Shown here piece by piece: positions 16,226 through 32,945 of a stretch of DNA of 32,945 nucleotides (its first letter is position 1; each line of letters begins with the position of its first letter). This DNA comes from Myxococcota bacterium. Its GTDB lineage: Bacteria; Myxococcota_A; SURF-8; G963663525. Position numbers and translations under genes: made by a program. The notes under the pieces were generated by a model. It was not told the DNA's origin and did not search any database. It saw nothing but the letters and a program-made list of their open reading frames with translations. The stretch covers positions 1 through 32,945 of the forward strand of contig CAXXVK010000009.1 in assembly GCA_963676915.2 (NCBI GenBank), written 5' to 3'.

Positions 16226-19200
16226 ATGCAAACGACCAAACCACTTCGATTCTGGACGCCCGGTGCTCTTGTACTCGTGGCGATCATGGCCGTGGGGTAT
16301 TTATTCGGACTGGCGCGCATGATCACGGGCCTGGGACCGGTCACAAACCTGACCGACCAATACCCCTGGGGAATATGGATCGGCATCGACGTAGCCTCCG
16401 GTGTCGCACTGGCGGCGGGCGGATTCACCACGGCAGCGCTGATCAATATTTTCGGACGCGCCAAATACCACCCGCTGGAACGCCCGGCTCTGCTCACAGC
16501 TTGGCTGGGTTATACTTTCGTGGGTGTGGGTTTGATGTTCGACCTGGGCCGCTATTACAACATCTGGCATCCGGCTATTTACTGGCAAGGCAACTCGGTC
16601 CTGTTCGAGGTCGGTATGTGCGTGATGTTCTATCTCACCGTACTGACAGTGGAATTTTCTCCGACGCTTCTGGAGGGAATCATCCGTCGCGAAGGGGAAA
16701 GCATGGTTTTGGGCCGATTGGCGAAAAGCCTGAGTCGCCCACTAAACGCGCTACACATGATGATTTGTCGTGTACTGCCGCTGTTTATCATTGCAGGTGT
16801 TGTTTTGTCCTTCATGCACCAATCCTCATTGGGTTCTCTGATGCTCATCGCGCCGACCAAGCTGAGCAGCTTGTGGTGGACACCCATTTTACCCATTCTG
16901 TTTTTACTCTCGGCCATCATGATCGGCTTCCCGATGGTCATTTTCGAATCGATCAGCGCTGCAAAAGCCTTTGGACGTACTCCCGAAATGGAGTTGCTTA
17001 CACCGTTGTCGAGGGTGATTCCCTGGTTTTTAGGATTGTATGCTTTGGTCAAATTCGGGGATCTCGCGTTTCGCTGGGATCAACTCGACTTCCTGGCCCG
17101 TCCTTCCGACACGGCGGCTCTGTTTGTCGAAATTGGCGTTGGAGTGGTGATTCCTTTCGTCATGTTGTTGCAGAAATCCGTGCGCCGCTCGACGTTCTGG
17201 TTGTTCATCGCCGTGTCCGCGATGATCCTGGGCGTGTTGCTCAACCGAATAAATGTGTTCATCGTCGGTTTCCATCCGCCGTTCGGTGAAAGCGGGTATT
17301 TTCCGGCCATCGGTGAAATCGCCGTAACGATGGGCCTGATTGCCACTATCGTTTTTCTTTATCGCTTTTTCGCCTACTATTTTCCCGTGTTCGATGCCCA
17401 AAATCTCTCTGTAAAAGAAGAAGAGTGCGAAAGCCGTAGGCGTCGCGCTCCCGGACTGGCGTGGATGGCCCGTGGTCTTGCCATAGTGCTGATGCTGTCG
17501 TTCGTGATCCTCTACGCCGTGGTCCATCGCCAGGGCATCAAAACAAGCGTCGTACAATTTGCCGATGCAGCCTATGCGAAAGCCTCCGAAAAGTCCGAAA
17601 CACACGATCCTCTGAATATCCCCGAGCCGTTGTCTTTCTCGGCGGAAACCATGCCGAAAATGCTGATACTCAACCGTCAGCAGGCCAACGAAAAAATCAA
17701 CGATTACGAAGCTGTGCGTTTCATGCACAAAGCCCATGCGTCGCGATTGGATGGCAATTGCAGCCTCTGTCACCACAAAGTTCAGCGGCATAAAGGAGAC
17801 CGCATCGGCGAAGCGCTGGAATTCTCCGACATGGACGAGCGCAAACCCGCATCTTGCGTGGCCTGCCACCAATATCCCAACGAGGCGGATGCCCCGGACC
17901 GTCCGGGTTTGAAAGGCGCTTATCACGCACAGTGCATTGGTTGTCACGAGCAGGAAAAAAGCGAAAACGCCCCCACCGACTGCACCGGTTGCCACGCCAA
18001 GCGCACACCCGATCATGGAGAATTCATTCATTTTGCCGGAAAACCCGACCCACGGGAAATTACATCCCGCTGTCTGGAGTGTCACGAGCAGGTGGGAGAG
18101 GATATTCTGCAAACCGCGCATTGGAAATGGGAAGGACCATCTCCCCATACAAAAGGCTACGAGCACCGAACGGATCTAGGTAAAAAGAAGGTCATCAACA
18201 ACTATTGCATCCACGTTCGTTCCAACGAAGCCCGCTGTTCCCAATGCCACATCGGTTACGGTTGGGAAAACGACGAGTTCGACTTCAACGACCCCACGAA
18301 CATCGACTGCCTTGTTTGTCACGACACCACCGGCACTTATGCCAAGGATGCTCCGAACGGCGGCTTGCCCAAGGCAGAAGTCAACACCGTTCAAGTTGCG
18401 AGCCACATTGGCAAAACCTCGCGCCAGACCTGCGGAAAATGCCACTTCTTCGGGGGGGGGGGAGCGAACGTCAAGCATGGCGACCTCGAACCCACGCTGA
18501 TGAACCCGCCGGACGAATTCGACGTGCATATGGGGCGCGCCGGGATGGATTGCCAGGACTGTCACCGAACCCAAGAACACCGTATCGCGGGACAATGTCT
18601 AGCGATTCCTACCAGCGAAGGCCGCGTGAGTTGCGAACAGTGTCATGGGGACAAACCCCACAACATGAATCACGACATCGGTTTCCACCTCGACAAGCAC
18701 ACCCGGTCGGTTTCTTGTCAAACCTGCCATATTCCGCATTTCGCCAAGAAAACCCCAACCAAGATGTTTTGGGACTGGTCCACGGCGGGTAAAAAACTGG
18801 CGGTCGAAAAAGACGAATACGGGATGCCGAATTACAACAACAAAAAAGGTTCTTTCCGCTGGGGGATGAACGTCGATCCTTGCGTGACCTGGTATGATGG
18901 TACCCATCGTCGCCATTTGCTGGGAGATCCGGTCGAAGATCCGGACAAACCGACGCTTTTGAATACTCCGGAAGGTTCCATCCAAGATCCGAGCGCAAAG
19001 CTGTATCCTTTCAAATGCTATTCAGCAGTGATTCCCATGGACGCTGAGCGAAAAATTTTCGCGGTACCGAACCTTTGGAAAGGGTTTTGGAAAGATTTCG
19101 ACTGGCAGAAGAGCCTTGCACAAGGCATGAAACTGTTCGGTGAACCTTTCTCCGGTAAGGTCGGATTTGGCAAAGCGGATATGTTCTGGGCAATCAACCA

Positions 19201-19441
19201 CGAGGTCGTTCCGGCAGGACAGGCGCTCGGTTGTGCGGATTGCCATAGCCAACAGGCCGTGACCTGCTCACGCTGCCACGGAGAACAACCCGGCTTCGAC
19301 AGTGCCGCTCTCATCGGTCCGCGTTACCCCGAGAGCAAAGCCAAGCTCAAGAGGTCGGATTTCGAAGCCATGGGATATTCCGACGATCCCGCCGTTTCGG
19401 GAGGACGATTCCATCATTACACGTTGCCGGGTAGGGACTGA
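16226..19441 (+). CDS. Fusion of a NrfD/HybB-like membrane quinol-interacting subunit, a tetraheme cytochrome c3-like domain and an octaheme tetrathionate reductase (OTR)-family domain; 13 CxxCH motifs
   Basis: TNLTDQYPWGIWI.DV..GVALAAGG, DLGR, MHQSSLG (HybB/HmcC); F.HKAH...CSLCHH...AYH.QCIGCH (c3); HWKW, INNYC, CHIGYG, CHFFGGGG..VKHGD, DVHM, CQTCHIP, WDWS.AG (OTR). Confidence 0.9.
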   Translation: MQTTKPLRFWTPGALVLVAIMAVGYLFGLARMITGLGPVTNLTDQYPWGIWIGIDVASGVALAAGGFTTAALINIFGRAKYHPLERPALLTAWLGYTFVGVGLMFDLGRYYNIWHPAIYWQGNSVLFEVGMCVMFYLTVLTVEFSPTLLEGIIRREGESMVLGRLAKSLSRPLNALHMMICRVLPLFIIAGVVLSFMHQSSLGSLMLIAPTKLSSLWWTPILPILFLLSAIMIGFPMVIFESISAAKAFGRTPEMELLTPLSRVIPWFLGLYALVKFGDLAFRWDQLDFLARPSDTAALFVEIGVGVVIPFVMLLQKSVRRSTFWLFIAVSAMILGVLLNRINVFIVGFHPPFGESGYFPAIGEIAVTMGLIATIVFLYRFFAYYFPVFDAQNLSVKEEECESRRRRAPGLAWMARGLAIVLMLSFVILYAVVHRQGIKTSVVQFADAAYAKASEKSETHDPLNIPEPLSFSAETMPKMLILNRQQANEKINDYEAVRFMHKAHASRLDGNCSLCHHKVQRHKGDRIGEALEFSDMDERKPASCVACHQYPNEADAPDRPGLKGAYHAQCIGCHEQEKSENAPTDCTGCHAKRTPDHGEFIHFAGKPDPREITSRCLECHEQVGEDILQTAHWKWEGPSPHTKGYEHRTDLGKKKVINNYCIHVRSNEARCSQCHIGYGWENDEFDFNDPTNIDCLVCHDTTGTYAKDAPNGGLPKAEVNTVQVASHIGKTSRQTCGKCHFFGGGGANVKHGDLEPTLMNPPDEFDVHMGRAGMDCQDCHRTQEHRIAGQCLAIPTSEGRVSCEQCHGDKPHNMNHDIGFHLDKHTRSVSCQTCHIPHFAKKTPTKMFWDWSTAGKKLAVEKDEYGMPNYNNKKGSFRWGMNVDPCVTWYDGTHRRHLLGDPVEDPDKPTLLNTPEGSIQDPSAKLYPFKCYSAVIPMDAERKIFAVPNLWKGFWKDFDWQKSLAQGMKLFGEPFSGKVGFGKADMFWAINHEVVPAGQALGCADCHSQQAVTCSRCHGEQPGFDSAALIGPRYPESKAKLKRSDFEAMGYSDDPAVSGGRFHHYTLPGRD

Positions 19442-20095: not shown

Positions 20096-23000
20096 ATGAA
20101 GATGGGTGCTTTTTTTTCTCTCTTCCTTCTCGCATGCTGTCTGCAAGCATGTGACCAGGATCGTGCTGAATTCCCGATCTCCGGGAACGAACCGTCTTCG
20201 GGCTTGGGCCAGGTGGTTCTGTCTATGAGTGTGGAAGATATGTCACTGATCGATCTGGGAAACATTCAATTGTACGCAGATCGAATTGATGGCGAGGCGA
20301 AATACGGTTCCATGTGTTTCGCGGAGGAGAATCCGGTTTTGCCGGAAGATGACACCCCGTGGACCTGCGACATATGGGAATTGCCCTCCGACATATACAT
20401 ATTTTCCGCTGAGATTTACACGCCGGATGGAGATCTCCTGTGTCTCGAAACGCCGACTTCGGACCCGGTAGAAGTCGTGGGTGGCCAGACAACCTACCTC
20501 TCGTTATCGAATTGCCGATTTTACCCCGACGACCCGGCGGACGGCGATATCGAAACCAACGGCGAGGTCGTGGTTGACATTCCTTTCGAACCGCTCCGTC
20601 CCATAATTCCGAATATCCACGTTGAAAAACTTTCCGATACGGACGTCCGGTTGACCTGGGCTCCCGACGACAGTGTTGATTCCTGGGAATTTCGTCTGTA
20701 CGGAAATGAAAACAAAACTCCCGATATTGATATCGATCCGGTACGAACCGAATCCATGGTTAACGAACCGGTCATTATCTGTACCGATCTTCCAATAAAT
20801 CAATTCTTTATTTCCACTGTGACTCCTTTTGCCGAAGGACAGGATTTCAGTCATAAATTGGGGCAAGTCGAATTCTCTACGATCCCCTCTGATGGCGATA
20901 TCGATGATGATGAAGAAATCATTAGCGGTGACGATGATATCCTTCCCGATGGGGATATGGACGACGAGAGCGACGAAATCGATACCATAGAGGCGATCGA
21001 GCAGGAAGCTTCGGCCAATGCCTGTGATGGTATTGATTGCTCGCAACACGGAATTTGTGAAATAGATACCATTGGGCAGGCTGCTTGCATCTGCGATCCC
21101 GGATATTCGCCCAATGGTTTGGATTGTGAATGGGCATATGTTGACGACCCGACAGTCGGTGACATCGGTGGGCGCGAGGAATGCGCCCAACTGTTCCAGT
21201 ATCCTTTCTACAGTGAACACGGCATGACCGATGATTTCCTGGGCCATATCCAGACTGGACGTCCTGGAGGCATCGATTACGACGGTATTATCGGAGATGA
21301 TGTCCTTTCCATCGGGCACGGTACAGTTACCGAACCTCCGGTTAACAATATACCCCTCGGCTCCTCAGCAATCTATGGTTGCGAAGGGACCGGCTGGGGG
21401 AATCACGTCATTATCTGTTTCTTGGATGACCAATGTGTGATTTACGCCCACTTGAAACCGGGTAGCATTCCACTTCAACTCGGAGATGTCGTTCAGCCTG
21501 GTCAGAAAATTGGCGAGGTGGGTAATACCGGTAACGTTTGTTCGAGCGGCGGAGACGGTAGTCACCTTCATCTCGGATTCAAAAACGACAGCGGATGGAT
21601 CGATCCTTTGACGTGTTTCCTCGATCCCATCGAATTTCCGGAACAGGGTGTCACGCCGTTGACCTGCCAAGATAACGATTTCGATATCTACGGACAAGGC
21701 AACGATTGTCTCCTGTTCGATTGTGACGATACGGATAATTACAAGCAGTCCTACGGAAGTTCGTGCACTTGTCTTGCCGACGAGCCGGGTGGCGAAGCCT
21801 GCGAGGATAGAGACGGTGACAACCGCTACAGCGGTAAGAATTGTCCGTTTTTCGATCAGGATTGTAACGACAACGATTCCTCGATTGCTATCGGTTGCGA
21901 TGCTCCCGACTGCTCCACGATATGCACTCCCGGTGCCGTTTCCTGCCAAGGCTCCAAAATCATTACTTGTTCACTCGACGGTTACGAGTGGATTCCAGGT
22001 GATGACTGCGGTTCCTGTGGTTGCAGCCAAGGGGAATGCGATTACGACGCGCAAGCCGATTATACCTGTTATAACGGCGATTTATGGTACCTTGACTGCG
22101 AAGGCTCGCGTACCTCGATCAAAACAAGCTGCGAATGCGGATGTAGCGGACAAAGCTGCTTGCAGGGCAGCGACTACCTGAGTTGCTACAATGGTGATGT
22201 CTGGCAATATAACTGCCAGGATCAGAGAGAAAGCCTGGTAGACGACTGTGGTTCCTGCGGTTGCAGCCAAGGGGAATGCGATTACGACGCGCAAGCCGAT
22301 TATACCTGTTATAACGGCGATTTATGGTACCTTGACTGCGAGGGCTCGCGTACCTCCATCAAAACAAGCTGTGAATGCGGATGTAGCGGACAAAGCTGCT
22401 TGCAGGGCAGCGACTACCTGAGTTGCTACAATGGTGATGTCTGGCAATATAACTGCCAGGACCAGAGAGAAAGCCTGGTAGACGACTGCGGTTCCTGCGG
22501 CTGTAGCCAAGGGGAATGCGATTACGACGCGCAAGCCGATTATACCTGTTATAACGGCGATTTATGGTACCTTGACTGCGAAGGCTCGCGTACCTCCATC
22601 AAAACAAGCTGTGAATGCGGATGTAGCGGACAAAGCTGCATACAGGGCAGCGACTACCTGGACTGCTACAATGGTGATGTCTGGCAATATAACTGCCAGG
22701 ACCAGAGAGAAAGCTTGGTGGAAGACTGCGGTTCGTTGGGATGCACCAACGGCGCCTGCAACGAACCCTACAGCCCCAGCGTGGTCATTGTTGACAATCA
22801 GGACTCTTCCGGTTTTACGAAAACCGGTACATGGTTCCATGCTTCCGATCACGACTCTTTCACGACCGGAGCCATCAATCAGAGTTTCGATTACACAATC
22901 AATTTCCTGGTGGATGGCACCACCGGAACGTGGCGAACTCCGACCAAGCTGTATGGTACCTATGACATCTACAAAAACGATGTCAGTCCCAATCAGTCGT

Positions 23001-23248
23001 TCAACGTAAACACGGAAGGAACGTACATCGTGTACAACAAATGCACTTCCGTACGTTACTACGTGGAACATGATGGTCATACCACCGGTGAGGCAATAGA
23101 TAAAAGCCAAGCCGGTTCAGGCTGGAGCAAAATCGGGCGCTTCGTCTTTACGGACCGCTACGGCGAAGTGCGCCTTCAAGATTACAGCGCCACCCCCGAT
23201 CGGTGTACGATCAGCTTTGACGCAATCAAATGGGTAAAAGTCAACTGA
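20096..23248 (+). CDS. Large lipoprotein with M23-family peptidase domain, EGF-like and Cys-rich repeats, and C-terminal golvesin/Xly-CBD-like domain
   Basis: RBS aaggag; LQA|CD lipobox; GIDY...GWGNHV...YAHL...V.PGQKIGEVGNTG...HLH...IDP (M23, ~21190-21625); VIVDNQD..GF...GTW...FDAIKW C-terminus. Confidence 0.88.
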   Translation: MKMGAFFSLFLLACCLQACDQDRAEFPISGNEPSSGLGQVVLSMSVEDMSLIDLGNIQLYADRIDGEAKYGSMCFAEENPVLPEDDTPWTCDIWELPSDIYIFSAEIYTPDGDLLCLETPTSDPVEVVGGQTTYLSLSNCRFYPDDPADGDIETNGEVVVDIPFEPLRPIIPNIHVEKLSDTDVRLTWAPDDSVDSWEFRLYGNENKTPDIDIDPVRTESMVNEPVIICTDLPINQFFISTVTPFAEGQDFSHKLGQVEFSTIPSDGDIDDDEEIISGDDDILPDGDMDDESDEIDTIEAIEQEASANACDGIDCSQHGICEIDTIGQAACICDPGYSPNGLDCEWAYVDDPTVGDIGGREECAQLFQYPFYSEHGMTDDFLGHIQTGRPGGIDYDGIIGDDVLSIGHGTVTEPPVNNIPLGSSAIYGCEGTGWGNHVIICFLDDQCVIYAHLKPGSIPLQLGDVVQPGQKIGEVGNTGNVCSSGGDGSHLHLGFKNDSGWIDPLTCFLDPIEFPEQGVTPLTCQDNDFDIYGQGNDCLLFDCDDTDNYKQSYGSSCTCLADEPGGEACEDRDGDNRYSGKNCPFFDQDCNDNDSSIAIGCDAPDCSTICTPGAVSCQGSKIITCSLDGYEWIPGDDCGSCGCSQGECDYDAQADYTCYNGDLWYLDCEGSRTSIKTSCECGCSGQSCLQGSDYLSCYNGDVWQYNCQDQRESLVDDCGSCGCSQGECDYDAQADYTCYNGDLWYLDCEGSRTSIKTSCECGCSGQSCLQGSDYLSCYNGDVWQYNCQDQRESLVDDCGSCGCSQGECDYDAQADYTCYNGDLWYLDCEGSRTSIKTSCECGCSGQSCIQGSDYLDCYNGDVWQYNCQDQRESLVEDCGSLGCTNGACNEPYSPSVVIVDNQDSSGFTKTGTWFHASDHDSFTTGAINQSFDYTINFLVDGTTGTWRTPTKLYGTYDIYKNDVSPNQSFNVNTEGTYIVYNKCTSVRYYVEHDGHTTGEAIDKSQAGSGWSKIGRFVFTDRYGEVRLQDYSATPDRCTISFDAIKWVKVN
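22001..22735 (+). repeat. Three near-identical 240-bp (80-aa) coding tandem repeats plus a partial fourth
   Basis: Units start at 22001, 22241, 22481 (gaygactgyggttcctgyggytgyagccaagggg) and 22721 (partial); each holds two CYNGD(L/V)W sub-repeats. Confidence 0.95.
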
Positions 23249-23265
23249 TTTCAGTGACTTCTTTC

Positions 23266-23295
23266 AACCGGGGCTGATGATTCAGCCCCGGTTTT
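23266..23295 (+). terminator. Rho-independent terminator
   Basis: aaccggggctga-tgat-tcagccccggtt-tt, 18 nt after the stop codon. Confidence 0.85.
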
Positions 23296-23691
23296 CTATG
23301 CGCTTCTTAAAAGCCTCATTTCGATCATTGATACGTCCTCGAAATGCACGACCTCAGAGGCAGATTTTCCATGTGAGGGGGATCCTTGGAAATCTATAGG
23401 AAGAATCACAGCATTCTTTTCGTAGAGGCGAAGTCCTCTGAACGAGAATTTGCCAAGCCTCCTTCTAGAATCGCCGAAAATCATTCCGGATCTACCTCGA
23501 GGAGCCATGTCAGGTCTTTCCAACCGAATATATTCTTGAGAATTTTTATTGAATTTGCTGGCACCTTTAGGATAAGATCCATCACTAAAGAAACATACAA
23601 AATCTTACATCCTTGGAAAATATTCAAAAGCACTTTCTGCCATCTGCAGAAGGTCAATTGTTGCGTTTTTCATTCGTATCGGGGAAACGAA

Positions 23692-24534
23692 ATGTATTTT
23701 TATTTATCGACGGAAGAAGTCGAATCCTATTTGGGAGCGCAAAAAAAAGAGGCAGACACTCTTTTGCAAAGGTTTTGCGAAAAAAAAGGTGGTCGAAAAA
23801 AGCTTCTTGCCAAAGCTGAAAAATTCCGGCACATCGTCGAACCCGAAGATTTGGTACAAGAAACGTGCCAAAGTGCTCACAGCAAAAGATCCACAATTCG
23901 GAGTCATACGCCAGGAGCCTTCATTGTTTTTTGGATGCAAACAATGAGCAATATTGCCAAAAATATGACGCGAGATAAGTTTTCCAAAGATCAGATTCGC
24001 ATCAGTATTACCAGAAAATACATCCGTGAACATTTCGACTTTTTAGCGAATTACGCAATCGAAGCAGGAGAGGTGAAAGTAGATGACGCACGCCGTTTCA
24101 AAGGGTACTACAATGGCAAAAACAAACCCAATATGACGGCTTTTTTGAAACTGCAATTGTTGCCTGGAGAAACGGAACAGGAAGGAGAACAGAAACTAAG
24201 GCGCTTTGATATAGTCCTGCGACGTATAGCAAAAAAAATAGAATACGACAACGTACGAAAAGAATTTGTTCAGAAAACCATTGTGGAATTTCCAACACAG
24301 TTCGGTATTGAGCGAGAAGAAAAAATCCTTTCGATACTTCAGGATAAGGACGTTTCATTACCGAAAGAAATAGATCAGAAGCTGTTTCATCGACAAATCG
24401 AAACCTTTCGTTCTACATACGAAAAAGTTCATGATTTGCGCGACTTGACCGAAGCGGAATTGTTTAAATTCGTTGAAATGCTTGAAGAAATCGTCTCCAA
24501 AACAAACTCGTCAAAAAAGAACGGAGAAGAGTGA
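23692..24534 (+). CDS. Divergent ECF-type (sigma70 group 4) sigma factor-like protein with C-terminal extension
   Basis: EPEDLVQET...GAFIVFWMQTMSNIAKNMTR fits sigma region 2 (D..Q...F..W......N...D..R); weak region-4-like segment. ATG 23692 follows gggga; the ORF is open from 23386. Confidence 0.65.
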   Translation: MYFYLSTEEVESYLGAQKKEADTLLQRFCEKKGGRKKLLAKAEKFRHIVEPEDLVQETCQSAHSKRSTIRSHTPGAFIVFWMQTMSNIAKNMTRDKFSKDQIRISITRKYIREHFDFLANYAIEAGEVKVDDARRFKGYYNGKNKPNMTAFLKLQLLPGETEQEGEQKLRRFDIVLRRIAKKIEYDNVRKEFVQKTIVEFPTQFGIEREEKILSILQDKDVSLPKEIDQKLFHRQIETFRSTYEKVHDLRDLTEAELFKFVEMLEEIVSKTNSSKKNGEE

Positions 24535-25505
24535 TGAGCTTCGATTATTTTGAAAACTGGCCCAGAGTTTGTTTCGATGACGACGGAAAGGGTAACAAAT
24601 ATCGCCAAACCGATAGAACAAAAATCAATACTTACGGTAAACAATCCGGGATGTTTTATCGAACGAGAGACATGCATGTCGTTTTCGATCCTTACCAGTC
24701 CGATTCAATCGAACTGTTGTACGAGGATCACGCATCTCCGACTTTAATCAATCTGCTACCATATGCCGACAGACGTAACCGCAATAAGCATGGAATCAAG
24801 CACGTTGTCGGTATTCTACCGAGTTCCATATCGCCGCCTGATCTTAAACTCGACGTCGGCGAGGCAACGTTCAATTGGGAACAATGGGATCTTCGGAAGC
24901 TTCAACCAAATTTGAACGTTTTGAATGAAGAAATGCAAAAAGTTTTCTTGCTGATCCATCCAGATAGGAAACCAGAGCCAGTTTGTCCGATTGCAACTCG
25001 CATCGATCACGCTGATTTTGACAAGAAAAAAGAACTCGTGTTTAAGGGCTGTTATGCTTGTCGTCAAAAAAACTACAAAAAACTCTTAGATACCAAGCTT
25101 CTCGATATTCCTTTGAAAGAATGGTTTTCCCGTTACGAAAAGGAAGCGAAATATGCCGCTGTCCATGGTAAGGGCATTTGGGTTCTAGCAAAGGATCCCC
25201 ATACTGGATTGAGACGAATTTTCATTTGCACCAAAAAGTCAATGTTTGCGTATTTCATTGAATCGGATAGTCAATCCGGTGTGTTTTTCATGCAAACCGC
25301 TTTTTATTTGAACAAATTTCCCGAAGTAACCAAGAGCATATGGGAAGAGTTTCTCAAAAAAGTGAAAAAATGGACCAATATGCATTTGGATGCAATGGAC
25401 TTCATTGTAGCTGAAGAAACTCCGGATCATTTGATGGACCTGGATCCTGGTACCTACACTTTCGCGAGAAGTTATTTTTCGACCTTGGACGAGGAACGGT
25501 CATGA
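24531..25505 (+). CDS. Hypothetical protein (324 aa), possible BECR-fold RNase
   Basis: Overlaps the upstream stop (GTGATG); RBS ggag; HGIKHV, RYEKEA and QTAFY motifs; CYAC. Confidence 0.75.
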   Translation: MMSFDYFENWPRVCFDDDGKGNKYRQTDRTKINTYGKQSGMFYRTRDMHVVFDPYQSDSIELLYEDHASPTLINLLPYADRRNRNKHGIKHVVGILPSSISPPDLKLDVGEATFNWEQWDLRKLQPNLNVLNEEMQKVFLLIHPDRKPEPVCPIATRIDHADFDKKKELVFKGCYACRQKNYKKLLDTKLLDIPLKEWFSRYEKEAKYAAVHGKGIWVLAKDPHTGLRRIFICTKKSMFAYFIESDSQSGVFFMQTAFYLNKFPEVTKSIWEEFLKKVKKWTNMHLDAMDFIVAEETPDHLMDLDPGTYTFARSYFSTLDEERS

Positions 25506-26668
25506 AAAAGCAAAAAAAACGCATTGTAAGTTCCCGCCATGAGGTGGTTTGGAAAAACGATCTGTTTTCAGACGCCTTACAATGGGCCGATATGCTCCGC
25601 CAGATTCACGAAAATGCCCCTGATAGCATTTCGATATTTTACGAGCGCCTTGCGTACTACAAAGATCGCTTCAATCCAACGTTGGAAGATATCGACCAAT
25701 TGGAAGCGTTGTCCGAAGAGGCGATTCAAGATGTAGAACAGCTTCGTTCAGAACTTCCACCTATTACGGCGAAGTTGTTCCTTTCGCTTCGATCGGATTC
25801 AACAATCTACAACCGGATTGCTTATCGGATATCTGAGCGAACACTTAAAGCTGATGCCATCGCTTTTCTTCACTACGTTCATCCCGCCAGTGGGGAGTAT
25901 ACGGATGTTTGGATCGATCACATATCAACCGATATTCAGGATCTACAGCTAATCGCCAAGCGACATGCACTCGCAGCGGTTCCATATAATTTGTGGAGAA
26001 ACAGCATTATTCTTCGAATGCCGACAGAAGTGGAAGAAATAGCTTCATGGCATACCGATTTACATACCGTGGAACCGATAACTCCTTTCAACCTAGTTCT
26101 CCCAAACCCGGAGTTGTCTGAGCTGGATCTGGTAGAAATCAAGCCATTTCTGTCTTTTGAGCCGGAACTTCACTCTCTCGTACAACAAATCCATGTTTTG
26201 GGAAAATCTGAAATCAAGCAAAAGACAGAAGCTAAAGGCGATCAGCCTGGCACGGTTATCCATATCAAAGAATATCTGGTCAACAAAGCCAAAGAAGGAC
26301 TCCAGAGTGCTGAACAATGGATCGCCGCATTGGAAGAAATTGCTCAACCGATTGGAGATGGTACGTCGATTGCCCCTGTTGCAGCAGGAGTAGCCGATTT
26401 GGTTCCAATAGATGAAAAATGTTTTCCACGTGTTTTGGAGGGAGGAGCTTTATTAATAAAAAGAAACATCTCCAAACAAATTTACATAATATACTTAACC
26501 GAATGCAATGCAGAATTAGTACAGAAAATCCTATTGATTGTGCAATTCGATACCGGAGATTCTCAAATTATTCTGGGAGAGGATTTGAACAGAAAAGCTT
26601 CAAAATCCGAGAAAATTCCAATGAAGAATGGACATATAGAACGTATCAATATCTTAAAGCTTGATTAA
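25502..26668 (+). CDS. Hypothetical protein (388 aa), possible anti-sigma/protease substrate
   Basis: ATGA overlap with the upstream gene; RBS gagga; helical N-terminus, linker with PVAAG, beta-rich ~90-aa C-terminus. Confidence 0.8.
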   Translation: MKKQKKRIVSSRHEVVWKNDLFSDALQWADMLRQIHENAPDSISIFYERLAYYKDRFNPTLEDIDQLEALSEEAIQDVEQLRSELPPITAKLFLSLRSDSTIYNRIAYRISERTLKADAIAFLHYVHPASGEYTDVWIDHISTDIQDLQLIAKRHALAAVPYNLWRNSIILRMPTEVEEIASWHTDLHTVEPITPFNLVLPNPELSELDLVEIKPFLSFEPELHSLVQQIHVLGKSEIKQKTEAKGDQPGTVIHIKEYLVNKAKEGLQSAEQWIAALEEIAQPIGDGTSIAPVAAGVADLVPIDEKCFPRVLEGGALLIKRNISKQIYIIYLTECNAELVQKILLIVQFDTGDSQIILGEDLNRKASKSEKIPMKNGHIERINILKLD

Positions 26669-26670
26669 AA

Positions 26671-29127
26671 ATGCCACGAATAGTTCAAATAGGTTTTCCG
26701 TGCCACACTAAAGAACCTACGTATATCAGCGTAAAGTTTATCAAAACTAACGCACACCACGTTGTAAATGCGGAGGCAGGTGAACTCGAAAGTTCTTCTG
26801 GTGCGCACTATATTTTTGAAACTCTTAGACTTAAAGAGACCACTTCTTCCCAATATTTTTCATTCGAACAATTTCCTCTTTATGACACCTCTCACATGCC
26901 TAAAACTCTATATAATGGTGATTCCGATGGAGCAGCATGTGCATTGGCCGTTGCCGCAGGGGATGAATTGAATGAAATCGACGGCGATGTACCTATTGTG
27001 CTTGTTTCATGCGCGATCAAACAAACAAAACAGAAAGAGGAATTGAAAGGCATCCGCCTGGAACCGGTGGCGACCATTAAAAGTAACGGCAAACAACAGG
27101 TTAATATTGGTTCCCTTGAAAGCAAATGGGAGGCAACTCAAAAAGCTTTTCATAATAACAAAAGCAAAGGTGCCGCTCTGGTTCTAATAAAAAGTGAAGC
27201 AGATAAACTTGGAGAAAAGCTAGATATCGTTCCAATAGAGGTACAAAACTTCAAGGTTTCGTCGTTGGAAAATCAAAATGGACCAAAGCTTGTATCTGTC
27301 GAAACCTATGATGCTCCGGTTCTTGCAAATTGTCTTAATATTCCGGGAGCAATTCTTTCCCCTCCACCGAAAATCCAGGATATCTTTCCCGACATTGAAG
27401 AGCCGGTGCCGGATACAGGGATTGTTCCTCGTATAGAACCTTGGGACCGTGCTCTCACTCGCCTCGTTGAAAACCAAACGTCGAAAATACCTCAACGGCT
27501 CGGTACACTAGCAGGTTTTGATCGGCAGTCATTCCTTTTTATCGTTGAAAGCGATCAACCCAAAGCGACTTATAACGAACTGCGACGGTATGAACGCCTT
27601 TTATTCGATGCTTGCCGATCAAGAGCGAAAGAAAATTTTTACAAAACGCGTTTCTGGCTTCCAATGTCTCATTCAAGTTTTCCCAATGGTCCAAACAATG
27701 CGGATGATTTTTTCCAGGCTGTAGTTCCTTCTCATCACATTCATGCCGAATATTTTAAAAAAAAGGGAAATATTGAAGAAGAACTGATTGTTGGGTTTCA
27801 TTTCAGCCTTTACGCCGACGAGCTGAAGCCTGATGTGTATCAATGTCTGATCAACTGGTGTAAAAGGATTTTTCACGGCTTCGAAGTGTCCTCCGAGCAA
27901 ATTCCCAGTAATTTCACGTATACTCCTCAAACAGCCAACCCTGCAGTGGTAATCGAAATCGTTTCTCCGGATGGTCAGGTACGTCAGGAAATTTTTCAAC
28001 AATTCCAAAGGGGTCTTTCACTTTTGAATCTACCATGCCCCCCTGTTTGTTTTGGCTTGCTCTACGAATCTGCAGACCATGTACCTGAATTTGTAGAGGT
28101 GGAGCAACAGGAGATGTCCTTGAAAAATGGGCTTCTGGATTTCAGGAAACGTTCAACGGTTCAGCCTGCAATAGGTACAAAGCTTGTCAGTTGTTTGGTT
28201 TCCATATTGGAAAATGAACAATTTTTCAATGACTTTGCCAGTAATCCCAAACTCAATCCACTTTTCGTTGCCTACAATTATTACATTGATAACAACCGGG
28301 AAGCTTTTAAAAAAACATCCTGTACTGCTTCTGAGTTACTGGAAGATATTACATGCTTTTCGAAATTAGCAGGATTGGATTTGAATCCCCTCCTCGACAG
28401 CTTTTTTTATGCTATAAAAACCTACAAACCAATCTGGATTGTGGCTTGGATCGAAGCTCTTATGGAAAAACGCACCCCTGAGCTTTTTGCTATTGCACTG
28501 TCTCATGCTGTCCAAACGGGGGGTGAATGCAACAACTGTATGGATCAAATCGTGTACATGTGCTTCAAATTCATCCAATCCGCATTGACTTCAAAATCTT
28601 TTATTAGCGACGGGGAAAAACTACAACAAGAAATCGACAAAATAATTCCCGATAGCCAAGCATTTTATCCTGTTTCAGAATGCCCGAAAGTATCGATTGC
28701 AGACTCTTTTTGTTTCGCTATATTACGATACGAACGTTCCTGCAAGGATAAAAAAACAAGTCAAATTTCTGAACTTTTATTGAAAAAATTGCATCCCAAC
28801 GTAACGGATCAGTGGAATTGCATTTATAGCGATGGGATGAACGAATGCAATTCACTTACTAGTGACCAAATGATTTATTTACTGACAAACGGCATACATT
28901 TAGATCTTAAAGATGCGCTGAAATTGTCAATCGAAAATTCTGGTGATCCACGTTCCCAAAAGGTTGTAGGCCAATTGAAGTTTACCTCGGATGAAATAGA
29001 GCACCTCATCAGTTGGGAACGCGATTTACGAGCTATTTTTGGCCTATTAACACCGGATGAATACGTTGAGCTTGCAAAGGATCAACGAGCCGTAATGAAA
29101 ATAAAACACTTGCGACAGGAAAATTGA
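26671..29127 (+). CDS. Hypothetical protein (818 aa) with N-terminal Lon-like (S16) Ser-Lys protease domain
   Basis: NGDSDGAACALA (S85) and IGSLESKWEA (K152) parallel Lon DGPSAG / IGGLKEK; starts 2 nt after the upstream stop. Confidence 0.7.
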   Translation: MPRIVQIGFPCHTKEPTYISVKFIKTNAHHVVNAEAGELESSSGAHYIFETLRLKETTSSQYFSFEQFPLYDTSHMPKTLYNGDSDGAACALAVAAGDELNEIDGDVPIVLVSCAIKQTKQKEELKGIRLEPVATIKSNGKQQVNIGSLESKWEATQKAFHNNKSKGAALVLIKSEADKLGEKLDIVPIEVQNFKVSSLENQNGPKLVSVETYDAPVLANCLNIPGAILSPPPKIQDIFPDIEEPVPDTGIVPRIEPWDRALTRLVENQTSKIPQRLGTLAGFDRQSFLFIVESDQPKATYNELRRYERLLFDACRSRAKENFYKTRFWLPMSHSSFPNGPNNADDFFQAVVPSHHIHAEYFKKKGNIEEELIVGFHFSLYADELKPDVYQCLINWCKRIFHGFEVSSEQIPSNFTYTPQTANPAVVIEIVSPDGQVRQEIFQQFQRGLSLLNLPCPPVCFGLLYESADHVPEFVEVEQQEMSLKNGLLDFRKRSTVQPAIGTKLVSCLVSILENEQFFNDFASNPKLNPLFVAYNYYIDNNREAFKKTSCTASELLEDITCFSKLAGLDLNPLLDSFFYAIKTYKPIWIVAWIEALMEKRTPELFAIALSHAVQTGGECNNCMDQIVYMCFKFIQSALTSKSFISDGEKLQQEIDKIIPDSQAFYPVSECPKVSIADSFCFAILRYERSCKDKKTSQISELLLKKLHPNVTDQWNCIYSDGMNECNSLTSDQMIYLLTNGIHLDLKDALKLSIENSGDPRSQKVVGQLKFTSDEIEHLISWERDLRAIFGLLTPDEYVELAKDQRAVMKIKHLRQEN

Positions 29128-29262
29128 ATTTTGTTTTTTATCGTTTCCTAAGGATGTCTGAATTTCTTACATCCAACCGAATCGGTGATCAGGGATCGAT
29201 TCAAGGGGTCTCAACAGGAATCATCATGGAAACGATCCGCTTCTTGCTTGAAGGAGTAATTC

Positions 29263-32200
29263 ATGCTATCGGACTGGTACATTTGTCAACGCCTTAACGT
29301 TTCCCCGTTTCGAACCTCGGTATTCCTTTCTTCGACGGCAATTTTGAAAGGGACGAATGAAAACTCGCTTTTAGCTAAACTGGCGATTGAAGAAATTACA
29401 AAACTGAACGAATGGCTTCAGTTGATCAGCCTGCAAAACGTACTCCTGCCTTTAAATTGGAACGACTGCAGTGAAGAGTTACAATATTCTATTGAGTCCT
29501 ACACTCAAAAATTGATTGATAAAATATCAAATTACGATTCAGCTCTCCTCAAGCAGTTGTTTCGTGTAGTAAGCAAAGAAGAATTTAAAAAGAATGAATT
29601 CGATAGAATTATTCGAATGATTCTTCCACCGATTATAAAGCAGGCACCAAGAAAACGATCTGCAAGTGCCTATTTAGATTTGCTTGACTTTGCAGACGAA
29701 AACATCCTACTTACTTTTATTCTATATGCTGCCAACCATCTTGAATCGGGTATGAAGTCCTGGCTAGCGGATACCATCAATGAAGAAAAAGAACATCCTT
29801 TTCAATTATTTTTCAATCGCTGCCTATCGGGTTCGTTAGGCCGTCACGCTTTTCGTCTAGCTTTGGATTTATTGCCAGCGAATCAAATCAACAATGTGGA
29901 AGATTTATTCCAAGAGATTCCATCCACGTCTTTGGTAGATGAACCAGACCTGCTTGAATCTCTGATTATCTTGTGGATCAGAAAGCATCGTGATGTATCT
30001 GCCGAAGCATTGACTTCCAAACTGGTTTTCGAAAGCTATCGTTTTTCGCTGTTCCGTTCGATATTCTGCGATTCAATAAGTGGACTTATGCCCCCACTGA
30101 CACCACTTTCACAGGACATCTACAGTTCGATAGGATTGAACGACTGGTTCAATGAAATTGAAAAAGTGTTATTCTTTCGAACTAGTGCTTATCGAATTTC
30201 AATCTGGCAAATCATTTGCTGGGAAGCCGGATTTCAGTTGTCCCCCGAAACATTTGCAAAGGAATTGATCCACAATTGGGCTCCGATATCCGGCACGGAA
30301 ACCACTCGCGTTAAAGTACGTGGACCTAAGCAAGAAAAAGAGCTTTTCTCCAAATGCTTGGTTTCGATAAAAAGTGCTCATGCATGGGACATCAAACGTC
30401 AAATAGATTATGATCCCAAGTCAGATAAAATTCAAGTGGATGCTTTTTCTAAAAATTGGATCTGCTCTCCTTGGGTTCCTTTCAACAGTAGAGATCAAGC
30501 AACGCAGCATTTATATCCATCGTTGGCACCGAGTCGCAAAAATAGCGCTAAAACAAAGCGATTAAAAAATCCACTAGTCTGGCTTCGACTATTGTGCACC
30601 AACGACATAGCAATCAATGCACTGTTACGGTTCGGTTTTGACTCTTACGAATCGGATTCGAACCATGAGATGGTGGAACTCTGCTCCCTTTTTGCTCATA
30701 CTTCCAGTGTATTAGGTATGTTCCGTTCTCTTGAAGGATTGAAAGACGGATCGTCGATCAATGAAATTCCTTATGCGTTCGTTGGAGTGGCACATTACAC
30801 CGTCAAACGGGTGCACAACTCGTTCGATAATACAGAAAAACGTCGACTCATGGAACTTCTCGTCTCTCAACTCGAAGCATATGACGATTCAAAGGTTCCA
30901 ACGATCAACGGGTGTAAAAACCGAGAGATGCACATGTTCATGACTGTGGCTTTGCCACAAATACTCATTTCATGGGCTAGATCATGGTATTTCTCTCTAT
31001 GGGGAGAATCGGATATTGATAAATGGAATGAATTGACCAAGAGAATCTATCGTTGCTATCCGGGACGAAAAACGACTCCCGAATTGGACAAACGCGTACA
31101 TTTTCCAAAAAAAATCGAAGCGGCAGCTTTCATCAAATATATCGATCCTTCTATAGAACCTGACATTCCGAAAGCCAATTACGACTGGAGAGAATTCGAC
31201 TCCCAAAAACGATATTCTGGTTGGAATGACAGCTATTGTAAGATGCTCTATACCGCAAAACTTTTTCCTGAAGAGTGGCGCGACAGAACGGACTGGGAAG
31301 AACCGAAAAAAGAGATCAATCAGTTGACACGCGCCGTTCAACGTGTCGGAAGTCTTGAACTCGATGATACAATCGATCTTGAGAGAAGCAATCGATGGAT
31401 ATTCGACTTGATTGCTGAACTTGATAAGATCAAAGATGTCAAAGAGTTGCCTCTTCTTGTCCGGTTGCGTTTGTTGGAACTTCTTTCGCACAAATCGTCT
31501 CAAAGTTCACATGAATTGATGACTGCCATTTCATGGGCTTTGTTCAGGTTCGGCGGCAGTATGGTGCTTTATAGGCTTTCGGAACGATTTCTTTTTAATG
31601 ACACTGAAATAACAAAAACGCTTGCTGATACTGAAACCAAATATGAACTATTGAAATGGATGATCTACGAGCATCTCTACGGAAGCGACGAGGTCATTGG
31701 TAGTAGTCCGTATGATCCCACCAATCATTTTCGTTCTCTAGATCGAAATACAATTATCGAGCACTCTCTCAAACGAGCTTTTTACTGTACCCTGAAAAAC
31801 GCAAATGAATCCGATCTTCAAGAATTTCTATCGAAACTTGGTGAATTTTTCCAAAAAATATCGAAGGAAAAACTTCCTTTTTCCATAACTAGTGTGGATG
31901 TAGCGGCTTTGGCAGAAAATAAGATCGACAAGTCGATTCTTCCTTCCTCATGGCAACTGAACAGTATTACAAGAGACAATGTGAACGACCGGTTTCATAT
32001 CTATCATGCTCCTCATCTCGGTCGATCGGAAGCCGAACAAAAAAGCTATTTTCAAGTACATGACCTGTTTTATTTGAAAAATATCGATAAACAGCTGCCA
32101 GACAGCTCAAAACGACGTGATAACTACAATCAAGCCATCGGTATTGTAATTGATAGTAAAAACCGGCATTTATTACTAAATGTGGGTTATCCCAATCCGG

Positions 32201-32945
32201 TAGAAGTAGAATGGAGAGGAAATGGCCAACCACCGAGCATCGGAAGAAAATTTAAAGTTCCTCTTAGGATGAATCCTAAAAAGGATTCTTTTGAATACGC
32301 CAGAGGAAGAAGGATCTCCAAGGCGTTTACCGATTATAGCACGGGTACGGTTTTTCTAAACTATAGAGAGAAATGTATCGATTACAAGAATGAATGGCTC
32401 CATATACCGAACGCTGTACTGTCGAACTGTCAGCAAAACAATCTCGATGATCTCCAGTTCCAAAAGGACTTGGTATTTACACATGTGATACCGGATATGG
32501 CAGGTGTTTTCAGAGAAAAACCCGATTTGCCGAACAAGAAAATTTCGGTTCGATTGACCCATGCTGGATTGAAAAAACCTGTAGAAAAGACTAGTATTGA
32601 ATTTTTTATGGATGCCTTCGGAGATCCATCCAAACCCTATAGAATGATCGTGTTGGTGGAGTGGATCCCTGGAGAAGGAATAGATATGGACCAGGTCTTG
32701 GTATCTCTAGAACCTGGTGAAAACTATCTTCTTTCTCCTGATGAATTTACTCCTGAAGCATGGGATACTTTAGACCTGAATGGACAATCATCCGTCCACG
32801 GGCTGCTGGCAGCCGTTCAATTGGTTCGACACAAGGAAAAAGTGCTCATCGATCTCGTTGGCGAAAAAGATGAAGACGATTCCACGATAACAAGAGCCGC
32901 TTTTCCACCGAATTTCCAATACCCCATCGACCGCAGAAATCTTTT
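29263..32945 (+). CDS. Giant hypothetical protein (>1227 aa, runs off the window; absent from the supplied ORF track)
   Basis: aaggag RBS at 29251-29256 and ATG at 29263 (MLSDWYICQRLNVSPF...). I translated frame 1 to base 32945 and found no stop. Confidence 0.9.
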   Translation, partial: MLSDWYICQRLNVSPFRTSVFLSSTAILKGTNENSLLAKLAIEEITKLNEWLQLISLQNVLLPLNWNDCSEELQYSIESYTQKLIDKISNYDSALLKQLFRVVSKEEFKKNEFDRIIRMILPPIIKQAPRKRSASAYLDLLDFADENILLTFILYAANHLESGMKSWLADTINEEKEHPFQLFFNRCLSGSLGRHAFRLALDLLPANQINNVEDLFQEIPSTSLVDEPDLLESLIILWIRKHRDVSAEALTSKLVFESYRFSLFRSIFCDSISGLMPPLTPLSQDIYSSIGLNDWFNEIEKVLFFRTSAYRISIWQIICWEAGFQLSPETFAKELIHNWAPISGTETTRVKVRGPKQEKELFSKCLVSIKSAHAWDIKRQIDYDPKSDKIQVDAFSKNWICSPWVPFNSRDQATQHLYPSLAPSRKNSAKTKRLKNPLVWLRLLCTNDIAINALLRFGFDSYESDSNHEMVELCSLFAHTSSVLGMFRSLEGLKDGSSINEIPYAFVGVAHYTVKRVHNSFDNTEKRRLMELLVSQLEAYDDSKVPTINGCKNREMHMFMTVALPQILISWARSWYFSLWGESDIDKWNELTKRIYRCYPGRKTTPELDKRVHFPKKIEAAAFIKYIDPSIEPDIPKANYDWREFDSQKRYSGWNDSYCKMLYTAKLFPEEWRDRTDWEEPKKEINQLTRAVQRVGSLELDDTIDLERSNRWIFDLIAELDKIKDVKELPLLVRLRLLELLSHKSSQSSHELMTAISWALFRFGGSMVLYRLSERFLFNDTEITKTLADTETKYELLKWMIYEHLYGSDEVIGSSPYDPTNHFRSLDRNTIIEHSLKRAFYCTLKNANESDLQEFLSKLGEFFQKISKEKLPFSITSVDVAALAENKIDKSILPSSWQLNSITRDNVNDRFHIYHAPHLGRSEAEQKSYFQVHDLFYLKNIDKQLPDSSKRRDNYNQAIGIVIDSKNRHLLLNVGYPNPVEVEWRGNGQPPSIGRKFKVPLRMNPKKDSFEYARGRRISKAFTDYSTGTVFLNYREKCIDYKNEWLHIPNAVLSNCQQNNLDDLQFQKDLVFTHVIPDMAGVFREKPDLPNKKISVRLTHAGLKKPVEKTSIEFFMDAFGDPSKPYRMIVLVEWIPGEGIDMDQVLVSLEPGENYLLSPDEFTPEAWDTLDLNGQSSVHGLLAAVQLVRHKEKVLIDLVGEKDEDDSTITRAAFPPNFQYPIDRRNL

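Follow-up and report, generated by a model that had tools for sequence, protein, structure and literature searches.

Protease-gated release of a sigma factor in defence has, to our knowledge, been documented so far only for two CRISPR-linked systems, CalpL-CalpT-CalpS and Craspase. The last five genes on a contig of a Myxococcota bacterium (GenBank assembly GCA_963676915.2, contig CAXXVK010000009.1) raise the question of whether a similar switch can occur without CRISPR. An earlier note, made from the sequence alone, had proposed that these genes encode a protease-to-sigma-factor cascade with a different trigger. We analysed the whole contig (positions 1-32945, hereafter the window), which belongs to a 74-contig, 5.18-Mb draft genome; the five open reading frames (ORFs) are here called A to E, and ORF E is still open where the contig ends. 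We read the block as a horizontally acquired operon around a two-part proteolytic switch of the CalpL-CalpT-CalpS kind that has no SAVED domain, cyclic nucleotides or CRISPR, and we hold this reading to be probable by a modest measure. It is favoured because the gene family at the centre of the block repeats the anatomy of CalpL and CalpT, a Lon-fold peptidase and a small-residue motif before a tail of ~10 kDa. The features on which the argument turns are as follows (aa, amino acids).

23692-24534, + strand: ORF A, 280 aa, isoelectric point 9.0; candidate divergent sigma-like or DNA-binding regulator
24531-25505, + strand: ORF B, 324 aa; GTG start, with an in-frame ATG at 24534; translationally coupled with A and C
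25502-26668, + strand: ORF C, 388 aa; predicted protease substrate or partner
26381-26389, + strand: codons of C's Ala294-Ala295-Gly296 motif, predicted to be cleaved or recognised; in a linker, 92 residues before the C-terminus
26671-29127, + strand: ORF D, 818 aa; Lon-like domain and C-terminal module
26671-27360, + strand: D residues 1-230, Lon-protease-fold domain of a family without a Pfam model
26923-26925 and 27124-27126, + strand: candidate Ser85 and Lys152 dyad of D, invariant in the family
27373-29127, + strand: D residues 235-818, conserved module of ~580 aa; predicted sensor or assembly part
29263-32943, + strand: ORF E, more than 1227 aa, truncated by the contig end; possible sensor or scaffold

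The five ORFs are co-oriented in an AT-richer block, and the overlaps between them are those that the earlier note had described; coordinates, junctions and GC content were all confirmed. A and B meet at GAGTGATGAGC, which reads as a TGATG overlap, or as GTGA if the GTG start of B is used. B and C share an ATGA overlap (TCATGAAA), and C and D are separated by a gap of 2 nucleotides (TAAAAATG). D and E lie 135 nucleotides apart, with a GAAGGAG ribosome-binding site before the ATG of E.

What kind of protein is D? Residues 1-230 have, on the structural model, the Lon protease fold, which is that of MEROPS S16-type peptidase domains. A phmmer search of 1.84 billion representative proteins (E ≤ 0.001) returned 44 proteins including D itself, and the other 43 fell into two disjoint sets of 28 and 15. 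In the 28 proteins of the first set the match was to D residues 5-230 and was without exception N-terminal; the domain was followed by nSTAND1 or nSTAND5 NTPases together with TPR, HEAT or FGE-sulfatase domains, or else by a hydrophobic helix and further domains. An AlphaFold2 model of the D N-domain from the resulting 29-sequence alignment was confident (predicted local distance difference test, pLDDT, 90.1; predicted template-modelling score 0.90). In a structure search of 48,161 PDB representatives the top 20 matches were all Lon-fold, CalpL among them, which bears out the Lon-like fusion that the earlier note had seen in D. The highest Foldseek matches in the PDB were all domains of Lon type (BrxL C-domain, LonA, MtaLonC and RadA; E from 4.9e-5 upward; template-modelling scores 0.36-0.50).

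The alignment of 29 Lon-like domains has invariant residues at G44, S85, A89, L92, S113, L149, K152 and L172, within or near the motifs GxSDxAACALA, LxSCS and SLxNKWxA. S85, which the earlier note had singled out as the residue to mutate, is thus invariant in 29/29 family members, as is K152. In the model S85 stands just before helix 87-102 and K152 lies within helix 146-162; Lon has its Ser and Lys in this order too, and the helices are those that the topology leads one to expect. From the model and the conservation we infer that S85 and K152 form a Ser/Lys catalytic dyad. D is unusual at full length. A word-index search of 5.8 billion clustered proteins found only D itself, 40 related genomes held no match, its own genome held no paralogue, and the protein atlas gave no usable match. 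The single-sequence AlphaFold2 model of whole D was unusable (pLDDT 33.4).

We asked how widely the Lon-like domain occurs and what accompanies it. A pattern scan of one genome per species gave four seed loci, in Ca. Uabimicrobium amorphum and in metagenome-assembled genomes of a deltaproteobacterium, a member of the Spirochaetales and a member of the Brocadiia. Further Lon-like places came from a genome of the window's own order (one place; this genome is here called G003), from Uabimicrobium and Brocadiia genomes (eight) and from seven further genomes (19). Altogether there were 32 places outside the window locus, 26 of them near full-length, so that 27 loci were counted with the window. The domain was present in 9/301 sampled genomes of the Uabimicrobium/Brocadiia phylum and, among 400 further genomes sampled from the window's phylum, in just 1. 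It can be multi-copy, with 6 places in Ca. Uabimicrobium amorphum (G401) and 7 in a second genome from that phylum's sample, G412. Here 'that phylum' is the one of Uabimicrobium and Brocadiia.

In all four seed loci the Lon-like gene was preceded, by an overlap or at a distance of a few nucleotides, by a gene of 240-326 aa, and the final ~110 residues of these partner proteins aligned with one another, showing an (A/G)AG motif and, after it, a conserved domain. In the second batch a partner profile revealed an adjacent upstream partner at 5/5 full-length places (E 5.6e-19 to 4.3e-11) and at 0/3 partial ones. In the third batch the profile recognised a partner in 8/16 (E 1e-19 to 1.8e-5), and 4/16 more were recognised by motif only, each having a partner-sized upstream ORF with an LPAAAGS-like motif and a tail of another subfamily. 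Overall, an upstream partner gene was present in 23/27 Lon-like loci, window included, so the homologues do co-occur, as the earlier note had asked of its proposal. Among the 21 partners of other loci, the [AG]AG motif lay 85-100 residues from the C-terminus in 19, and HxxxCxxC was present in 14, in the N-terminal half of most. HxxxCxxC is a zinc anti-sigma signature. The partner in locus L019 also matched Pfam zf-HC2 (E 6.7e-4).

In the window the gene in the partner's position is C. A profile of four partners, all from other phyla, matched C alone among 18,706 six-frame ORFs of ≥100 aa in the genome (E 0.0023, residues ~277-387). A profile of nine partners built without the window sequence again found C alone (E 0.049 genome-wide; 1.2e-5 among the five ORFs). 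The scores are modest; since the sole match in the genome is the gene in the predicted position, we take C to be the family's partner here. In the partner alignment including C, residues A295, G296 and G352 are invariant. A cut after the Ala-Ala of the AAG motif would, by computation, divide C into fragments of 33.7 and 10.5 kDa. By analogy with CalpT, AAG may be the cleavage site in C. A complex prediction of D 1-235 with C 270-388 scored 0.00 in a run without controls, and is no evidence either way.

Many of the related loci also carry a sigma factor. An extracytoplasmic function (ECF) sigma factor was found within the fetched flank in 12/26 other full-length loci. That of L020 matched Pfam Sigma70_r4 (E 1.3e-6); those of L019 (E 1.7e-5), G003 (E 2.8e-5) and L043 (E 1.8e-13) matched a profile of host ECF sigmas; and eight more gave E-values of 5.7e-29 to 7e-6. 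The usual order was sigma-partner-protease, with the sigma gene after the protease in two loci and ~2 kb upstream in G003. In the window this third-gene position is occupied by two genes, A and B.

The G003 locus (L025, G003:C1:986000-1004000, reverse strand) lies in a low-GC patch. There a 264-aa MazF/PemK-like gene (PemK_toxin, E 1.9e-4) abuts the gene of the 159-aa AAG-bearing protein, and the third protein, of 764 aa, combines the Lon-like domain with a Ser/Thr kinase and ends in a hydrophobic region of several helices. In the Brocadiia metagenome-assembled genome, at L021 11734-15417 (+), a gene for a 1227-aa TPR-CHAT protease starts at the stop of the Lon-like gene, giving two proteases in a row.

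The remainder of D, residues 235-818, belongs to a different set of proteins. The 15 proteins of the second phmmer set matched D 235-420 and, collinearly, D's C-terminal end, so residues 235-818 are one conserved module. The heads in front of it vary: Pkinase in 5, TIR_2 in 4, PNP_UDP_1, Mrr_cat, a FAD/NAD Rossmann domain and bDLD1 in 1 each, and 2 without a family. Three metagenome contigs, all cut within the module gene, add kinase, CHAT-like and short EAD-like heads, as read from translations. At L006 1880-3331 the CHAT-like head is fused straight to a D-type module. At L005 5305-8275 the module stands behind the short EAD-like N-terminal domain, and on its 5' side are a caspase-like gene with a matching helical tail and an alpha/beta-hydrolase-like gene (GxSxG). 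Because it elsewhere stands behind kinase, TIR, PNP, nuclease, CHAT or death-like heads, the module probably serves to sense a signal or to drive assembly. The earlier note had looked for the sensor among the large downstream proteins; the likeliest sensor is D's own C-terminal module, and not necessarily E.

Scans of 9 proteins with the module gave no Pfam family for it at E ≤ 1. It was found neither in GTDB representatives (pattern scan) nor in 5 further genomes, and a search of 400 other genomes from the window's phylum did not find it either; the one extra match there (G229) covered the head part of the profile only.

How might these parts work together? In the mechanism that we propose, a signal sensed by D's module, possibly with E, would activate or assemble D. 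The ~10.5 kDa tail of C would dock on the peptidase, and the Lon-like domain would use S85 and K152 to cut C at the AAG linker. Release or degradation of the 33.7 kDa N-terminal part of C would follow; a cut after Ala-Ala would leave an Ala-Ala end on the head of C, which one may compare, as pure conjecture, with the LAA degron of the CalpT system. The ligand of the C head would thereby be freed, and by position and weak similarity this would be A, or otherwise B. In related loci the protein held would be the ECF sigma factor, with the partner carrying the zinc anti-sigma motif. B and E would be accessory proteins. Every step of this mechanism is conjecture; what the data establish is the gene order and coupling, the Lon fold, the invariant Ser and Lys, the partner gene throughout the family and the enrichment of nearby sigma factors. 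The context of the block suggests a role in defence, possibly against phages.

The closest comparison is with CalpL, CalpT and CalpS, respectively the protease, the anti-sigma protein and the sigma factor of a type III CRISPR system. In the available text of the first report (10.1101/2021.12.06.471393), CalpL is a monomeric SAVED-Lon protease that cuts CalpT, a two-domain protein, in the flexible linker ahead of its ~10 kDa C-terminal domain, with Ala194 as the P1 residue in VLRHVA/ST. From the CalpL structure, Ala or Gly was there judged the sole likely P1 fit; the small CalpT fragment has an immunoglobulin-like fold, and the N-terminal part was at first read as a MazF-like toxin. For Cloacimonas, the later report, as far as its text is available (10.1101/2024.05.08.593097), places the cut of CCaCalpT in LAAA, between A204 and A205; the CalpT N-fragment stays on CalpS, which is a sigma factor of ECF-like type, and the LAA end that it gains acts as a degron through which the sigma factor comes free.

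The block and its relatives resemble this system in that the gene next to the protease encodes a two-part protein whose linker bears a small-residue motif and leads into a C-terminal domain of ~10 kDa, in that sigma factors lie near in related loci, and in the MazF-like gene of one related locus. The differences are also plain. Unlike CalpL, D has no SAVED, CARF or N-terminal helical domain: the peptidase begins at residue 1 and is followed by a different module of 580 aa. D has no sequence similarity to CalpL, the gene order here is regulator-partner-protease, and the sensor parts across the Lon-like family are different and varied. Unlike CalpT, the family's partners usually carry the zinc anti-sigma motif and not a MazF-like fold, and no match to DUF2080 was found.

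The absence of CRISPR parts that the earlier note had remarked on stood up to closer inspection of the locus. No Cas family was found by Pfam in A-E or in the 9 upstream ORFs scanned on the 33-kb contig, no SAVED or other Pfam family matched D at E ≤ 1, and PADLOC-DB 2.0 matched A-E with 0 families at E ≤ 1. A genome-wide search for SAVED (PF18145) found none, but the control also gave no match. The genome's only Cas1 match is on contig C29, at 23202-24038 (-), within an 885-aa frame far longer than Cas1, which may be a fusion.

Three other known systems share part of this design. Like Craspase, the block would follow a protease-inhibitor-sigma logic (10.1101/2024.05.08.593097, available text), and in L021 a TPR-CHAT gene follows the Lon-like gene. 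Unlike Craspase, which comprises gRAMP with TPR-CHAT, Csx30, Csx31 and CASP-sigma, the fold here is Lon and not the caspase-like CHAT fold, there is no gRAMP, and Craspase is activated by RNA guidance.

With the iSTAND/VMAP third components of vWA-MoxR ternary systems, D shares a core, residues 235-818, that stands behind swappable TIR, peptidase or EAD heads, bDLD1 included (Kaur et al. 2020, PMC7159879), and bDLD1 is reported fused to iSTAND (PMC8195603, available text). D differs in that its module gave no Pfam match at E ≤ 1 in the 9 proteins tested. No MoxR or vWA gene occurs in the window up to the contig end inside E, the genome's two AAA_3 matches being on contigs C30 and C67, and no Walker A motif was found in A-E or in two ORFs at the start of contig C19 of the same genome. 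The main text of PMC7159879 never mentions Lon (0 whole-word occurrences). By analogy D's module may work like an iSTAND/VMAP scaffold; we do not call it iSTAND.

Zinc anti-sigma/ECF pairs of the RsrA-SigR type are the third comparison. As in those pairs, most partners have HxxxCxxC in the N-terminal half and an ECF sigma factor is adjacent in several loci; unlike them, the partners add an AAG linker and a C-terminal domain of ~10 kDa and are always followed by a Lon-like gene, and C itself lacks the Cys motif.

Several results weigh against reading the block as a protease-gated switch. For the D N-domain there was no Pfam match at E ≤ 1, neither phmmer nor a profile found a Lon chain among PDB sequences, and comparison with 21 Lon_C domains gave hhalign probabilities of ≤2.4%. 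As the sequences thus gave no connection with Lon, S85 and K152 can be likened to the Lon dyad by topology and conservation, but not residue by residue. The profile scores of C are modest, at 12-18 bits; a Pfam and motif scan found neither HxxxCxxC nor zf-HC2 in it, and its N-terminal 290 residues match nothing. The partner is missing from 4/27 loci (L079, L080, L081 and L094, the last with just 177 nucleotides of sequence upstream), and the partner of G003 was recognised by eye only (E 0.31 once, no match with the nine-sequence profile). B and E are unexplained: B gave nothing under E 0.07 in Pfam, PADLOC or NCBIfam and has no relatives, and E has no relatives by Pfam, PADLOC, NCBIfam or word-index search, and no motifs. 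No PADLOC defence family was found in A-E or in the first 13.5 kb of C19, bar weak ATPase matches.

Residues 43-106 of A matched Pfam Sigma70_r2 at E 0.019 (15.2 bits against a cut-off of 24) and four NCBIfam sigma families at E 0.003-0.07 (12.7-17.1 bits against cut-offs of 171-250). No sigma region 4 family was found in A by Pfam at E ≤ 1, and against host ECF sigmas and triad-associated ECF profiles the hhalign probabilities were 4% and 2%. Among the related loci, the third gene in 8/26 is not a sigma factor and encodes an unrelated protein of ~280-320 aa, here called X. With X in the sigma factor's place, the family's output is not always a sigma factor.

The X family has the motif LxxCIWP near its N-terminus and lies upstream of the partner gene in Planctomycetota-type genomes. 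Its loci are L018 8307-9275, L038 6378-7220 (-), L039 6326-7198 (-), L045 6446-7399 (-), L078, L085, L086 and L096. X gave an hhalign probability of 0.2% against the sigma profile, and it has no similarity to A or B. B in turn has no similarity to the MazF-like protein of G003, to L020_326 or to the X family. E resembled none of the C19 ORFs and no neighbouring gene at any related locus, and its comparison with itself gave nothing.

What, then, is A? Neither ECF profile, host or triad-associated, placed A among its top hmmsearch matches (not significant), and its nearest protein-atlas clusters, HTH/Sigma70_r2 at 0.76-0.81, are below lead level and mostly HTH_3 repressor-like. Of the earlier note's description of A as ECF-sigma-like, the sub-threshold region 2 signal survives, but region 4 and any significant ECF profile match do not. 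That the ECF thresholds were unmet lowers the case that A is an ECF sigma factor, not the case that it acts as a released regulator. Being basic and having a weak sigma region 2 signature in its sequence, A is the best candidate for the protein held by C here. The protease-to-sigma cascade as first proposed is borne out in part: the protease, a cascade-like cassette and the lack of CRISPR parts are upheld, and A as a sigma factor, E as the sensor and a role in defence stay conjectural.

The strongest alternative keeps the same protease-partner pair and gives it an output other than transcription. Cutting C would free or activate a toxic or effector part (the 290-aa N-region of C, or B, or E); the operon would behave as a toxin-antitoxin or abortive-infection module under protease control, with A as its ordinary HTH regulator. 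The uncertain standing of A fits this, both in its sub-threshold sigma signal and in its mostly HTH_3 repressor-like atlas neighbours, and so do the third genes of other loci that are not sigma factors (8/26), the MazF-like gene beside the partner in G003, and the killing heads (TIR, PNP, Mrr nuclease) borne elsewhere by D's module. The N-terminal part of CalpT was itself first taken for a MazF-like toxin (10.1101/2021.12.06.471393, available text). A toxic output accords less well with the ECF sigmas near 12/26 related loci and the zinc anti-sigma motif in 14/21 partners, and Pfam, PADLOC and NCBIfam scans of B, C and E showed no toxin family. We consider it fairly unlikely.

Ordinary signalling is the next alternative. 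Here a cytoplasmic, site-specific Lon-like protease would control ECF-type regulators in response to environmental or envelope cues, and the low-GC island would be incidental. Many family members do resemble classical transmembrane signalling proteins, with the Lon-like domain joined to a transmembrane helix and extracytoplasmic domains (FGE-sulfatase, phosphonate-binding-like) or to a Ser/Thr kinase. Pairs of ECF and anti-sigma factors are mostly stress regulators, and the PADLOC scan gave no match. Unrecognised soluble anti-sigma factors probably exist, according to the available text of a review of ECF sigma factors (PMC7826278). Yet other members are fusions with STAND NTPases that bear TPR or HEAT repeats, a TPR-CHAT protease lies directly downstream in one locus, and two genomes hold 6-7 copies each. 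The distribution is patchy and island-borne, and the heads of D's module are those of predicted immunity or apoptosis-type proteins (TIR, bDLD1, caspase-EAD neighbours). We regard ordinary signalling as distinctly unlikely.

That the block is a decaying or non-functional foreign island, its ORFs remnants without concerted function, is very improbable: B and E have no homologues, full-length D is unique in the word search and the contig ends inside E, but the five frames are long, intact and tightly coupled, D keeps its invariant catalytic candidates, C keeps the family motif and the N-domain model is confident.

A wider proposal, which we make tentatively, reaches beyond this block. The Lon-like domain and its AAG-bearing partner may constitute a previously unnamed, CRISPR-independent switch family in at least 4 bacterial phyla, in which one peptidase-substrate pair serves many sensors (membrane receptors, Ser/Thr kinases, STAND NTPases and, in this locus, a module resembling iSTAND) and several outputs (ECF sigmas, a MazF-like protein, X). 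CalpL-CalpT-CalpS would then be one CRISPR-captured branch of a far broader principle of signalling, and the present locus would be a death-domain-type immune scaffold with a protease-to-transcription output in place of a killing head. The protease-to-anti-sigma-to-sigma kind of cascade is already known; the peptidase and partner families, their independence of CRISPR and their range of sensors are unmodelled in Pfam, NCBIfam and PADLOC. In the literature searched we found no description of a non-CRISPR cassette of Lon-like, anti-sigma and ECF genes, and supplementary data (such as the source data of PMC7159879) may list such proteins.

The family would thus present the same two-part switch without a CRISPR or cyclic-nucleotide part, joined to a wide range of sensor types. 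If cleavage is real, soluble anti-sigma factors cut by a dedicated cytoplasmic protease would be a new class of regulator for ECF-type factors, the pair would offer a compact and probably orthogonal protease and substrate for synthetic circuits, and the 'swappable-head' immune scaffolds of comparative genomics would be linked to a transcriptional output. S85, K152 and A294-G296 are concrete experimental handles.

Where did the block come from? It looks horizontally acquired, because its GC and GC3 (GC content at third codon positions) differ from those of its surroundings and because D has no homologue in 40 relatives. GC per kb is 0.39-0.44 from ~23000 to the contig end, against 0.45-0.57 upstream and 0.52 genome-wide, and GC3 is 0.37-0.45 in ORFs A-E against 0.56-0.63 in three upstream genes. 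The fall occurs in the following feature.

23249-23691, + strand: intergenic leader between a GC-normal upstream gene (stop at 23248) and ORF A

A GC-rich hairpin with a T run was read at ~23263-23297, 3' of the upstream gene's stop. The leader holds one sigma-70-like site (23507-23534); this count is below that of shuffled sequence, so the site is no evidence of a promoter. Scans of the region for tRNAs, Rfam families, promoters and terminators gave nothing informative. In A-E a motif scan, made without a signal-peptide predictor, found no hydrophobic transmembrane-like window and no Walker A motif, and no protein of the five reached threshold in Pfam, NCBIfam or PADLOC scans. 

The contig's end shared no k-mer overlap with any contig end of the genome. 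One sequencing run (X1) holds the stretch (94% of words), and its contig stops at 32416 and bridges nothing; no RNA dataset holding the stretch was found among those listed. The first 8 kb of contig C19 (1-8000) are also low in GC (0.40-0.47) and may be the other side of the same island, a link that is unproven. C19 opens within a 268-aa frame that runs in from its end and overlaps a 728-aa ORF, both without a family, and continues with a 1438-aa LVIVD/disintegrin/LTD protein.

Upstream of the block the genes are host-typical by Pfam, and include FG-GAP and laminin-G surface proteins, FadL, LysR, an ion channel, a sigma-54 activator, an NrfD-multihaem cytochrome and an M23 peptidase. The peptidase is a 1050-aa lipoprotein-like ORF at 20096-23248 (+), with M23 peptidase and Golvesin_C domains (Pfam); its translation contains three near-identical tandem Cys-rich repeats of ~70 aa each (DDCGSCGCSQGECDYDAQADY...). 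At 16226-19441 (+), a 1071-aa frame joins an NrfD-like membrane domain to multihaem cytochrome c domains (Cytochrome_cB, C7, CIII and c3_2), an unusual fusion, and a gene for an Fe-S protein lies directly upstream of it.

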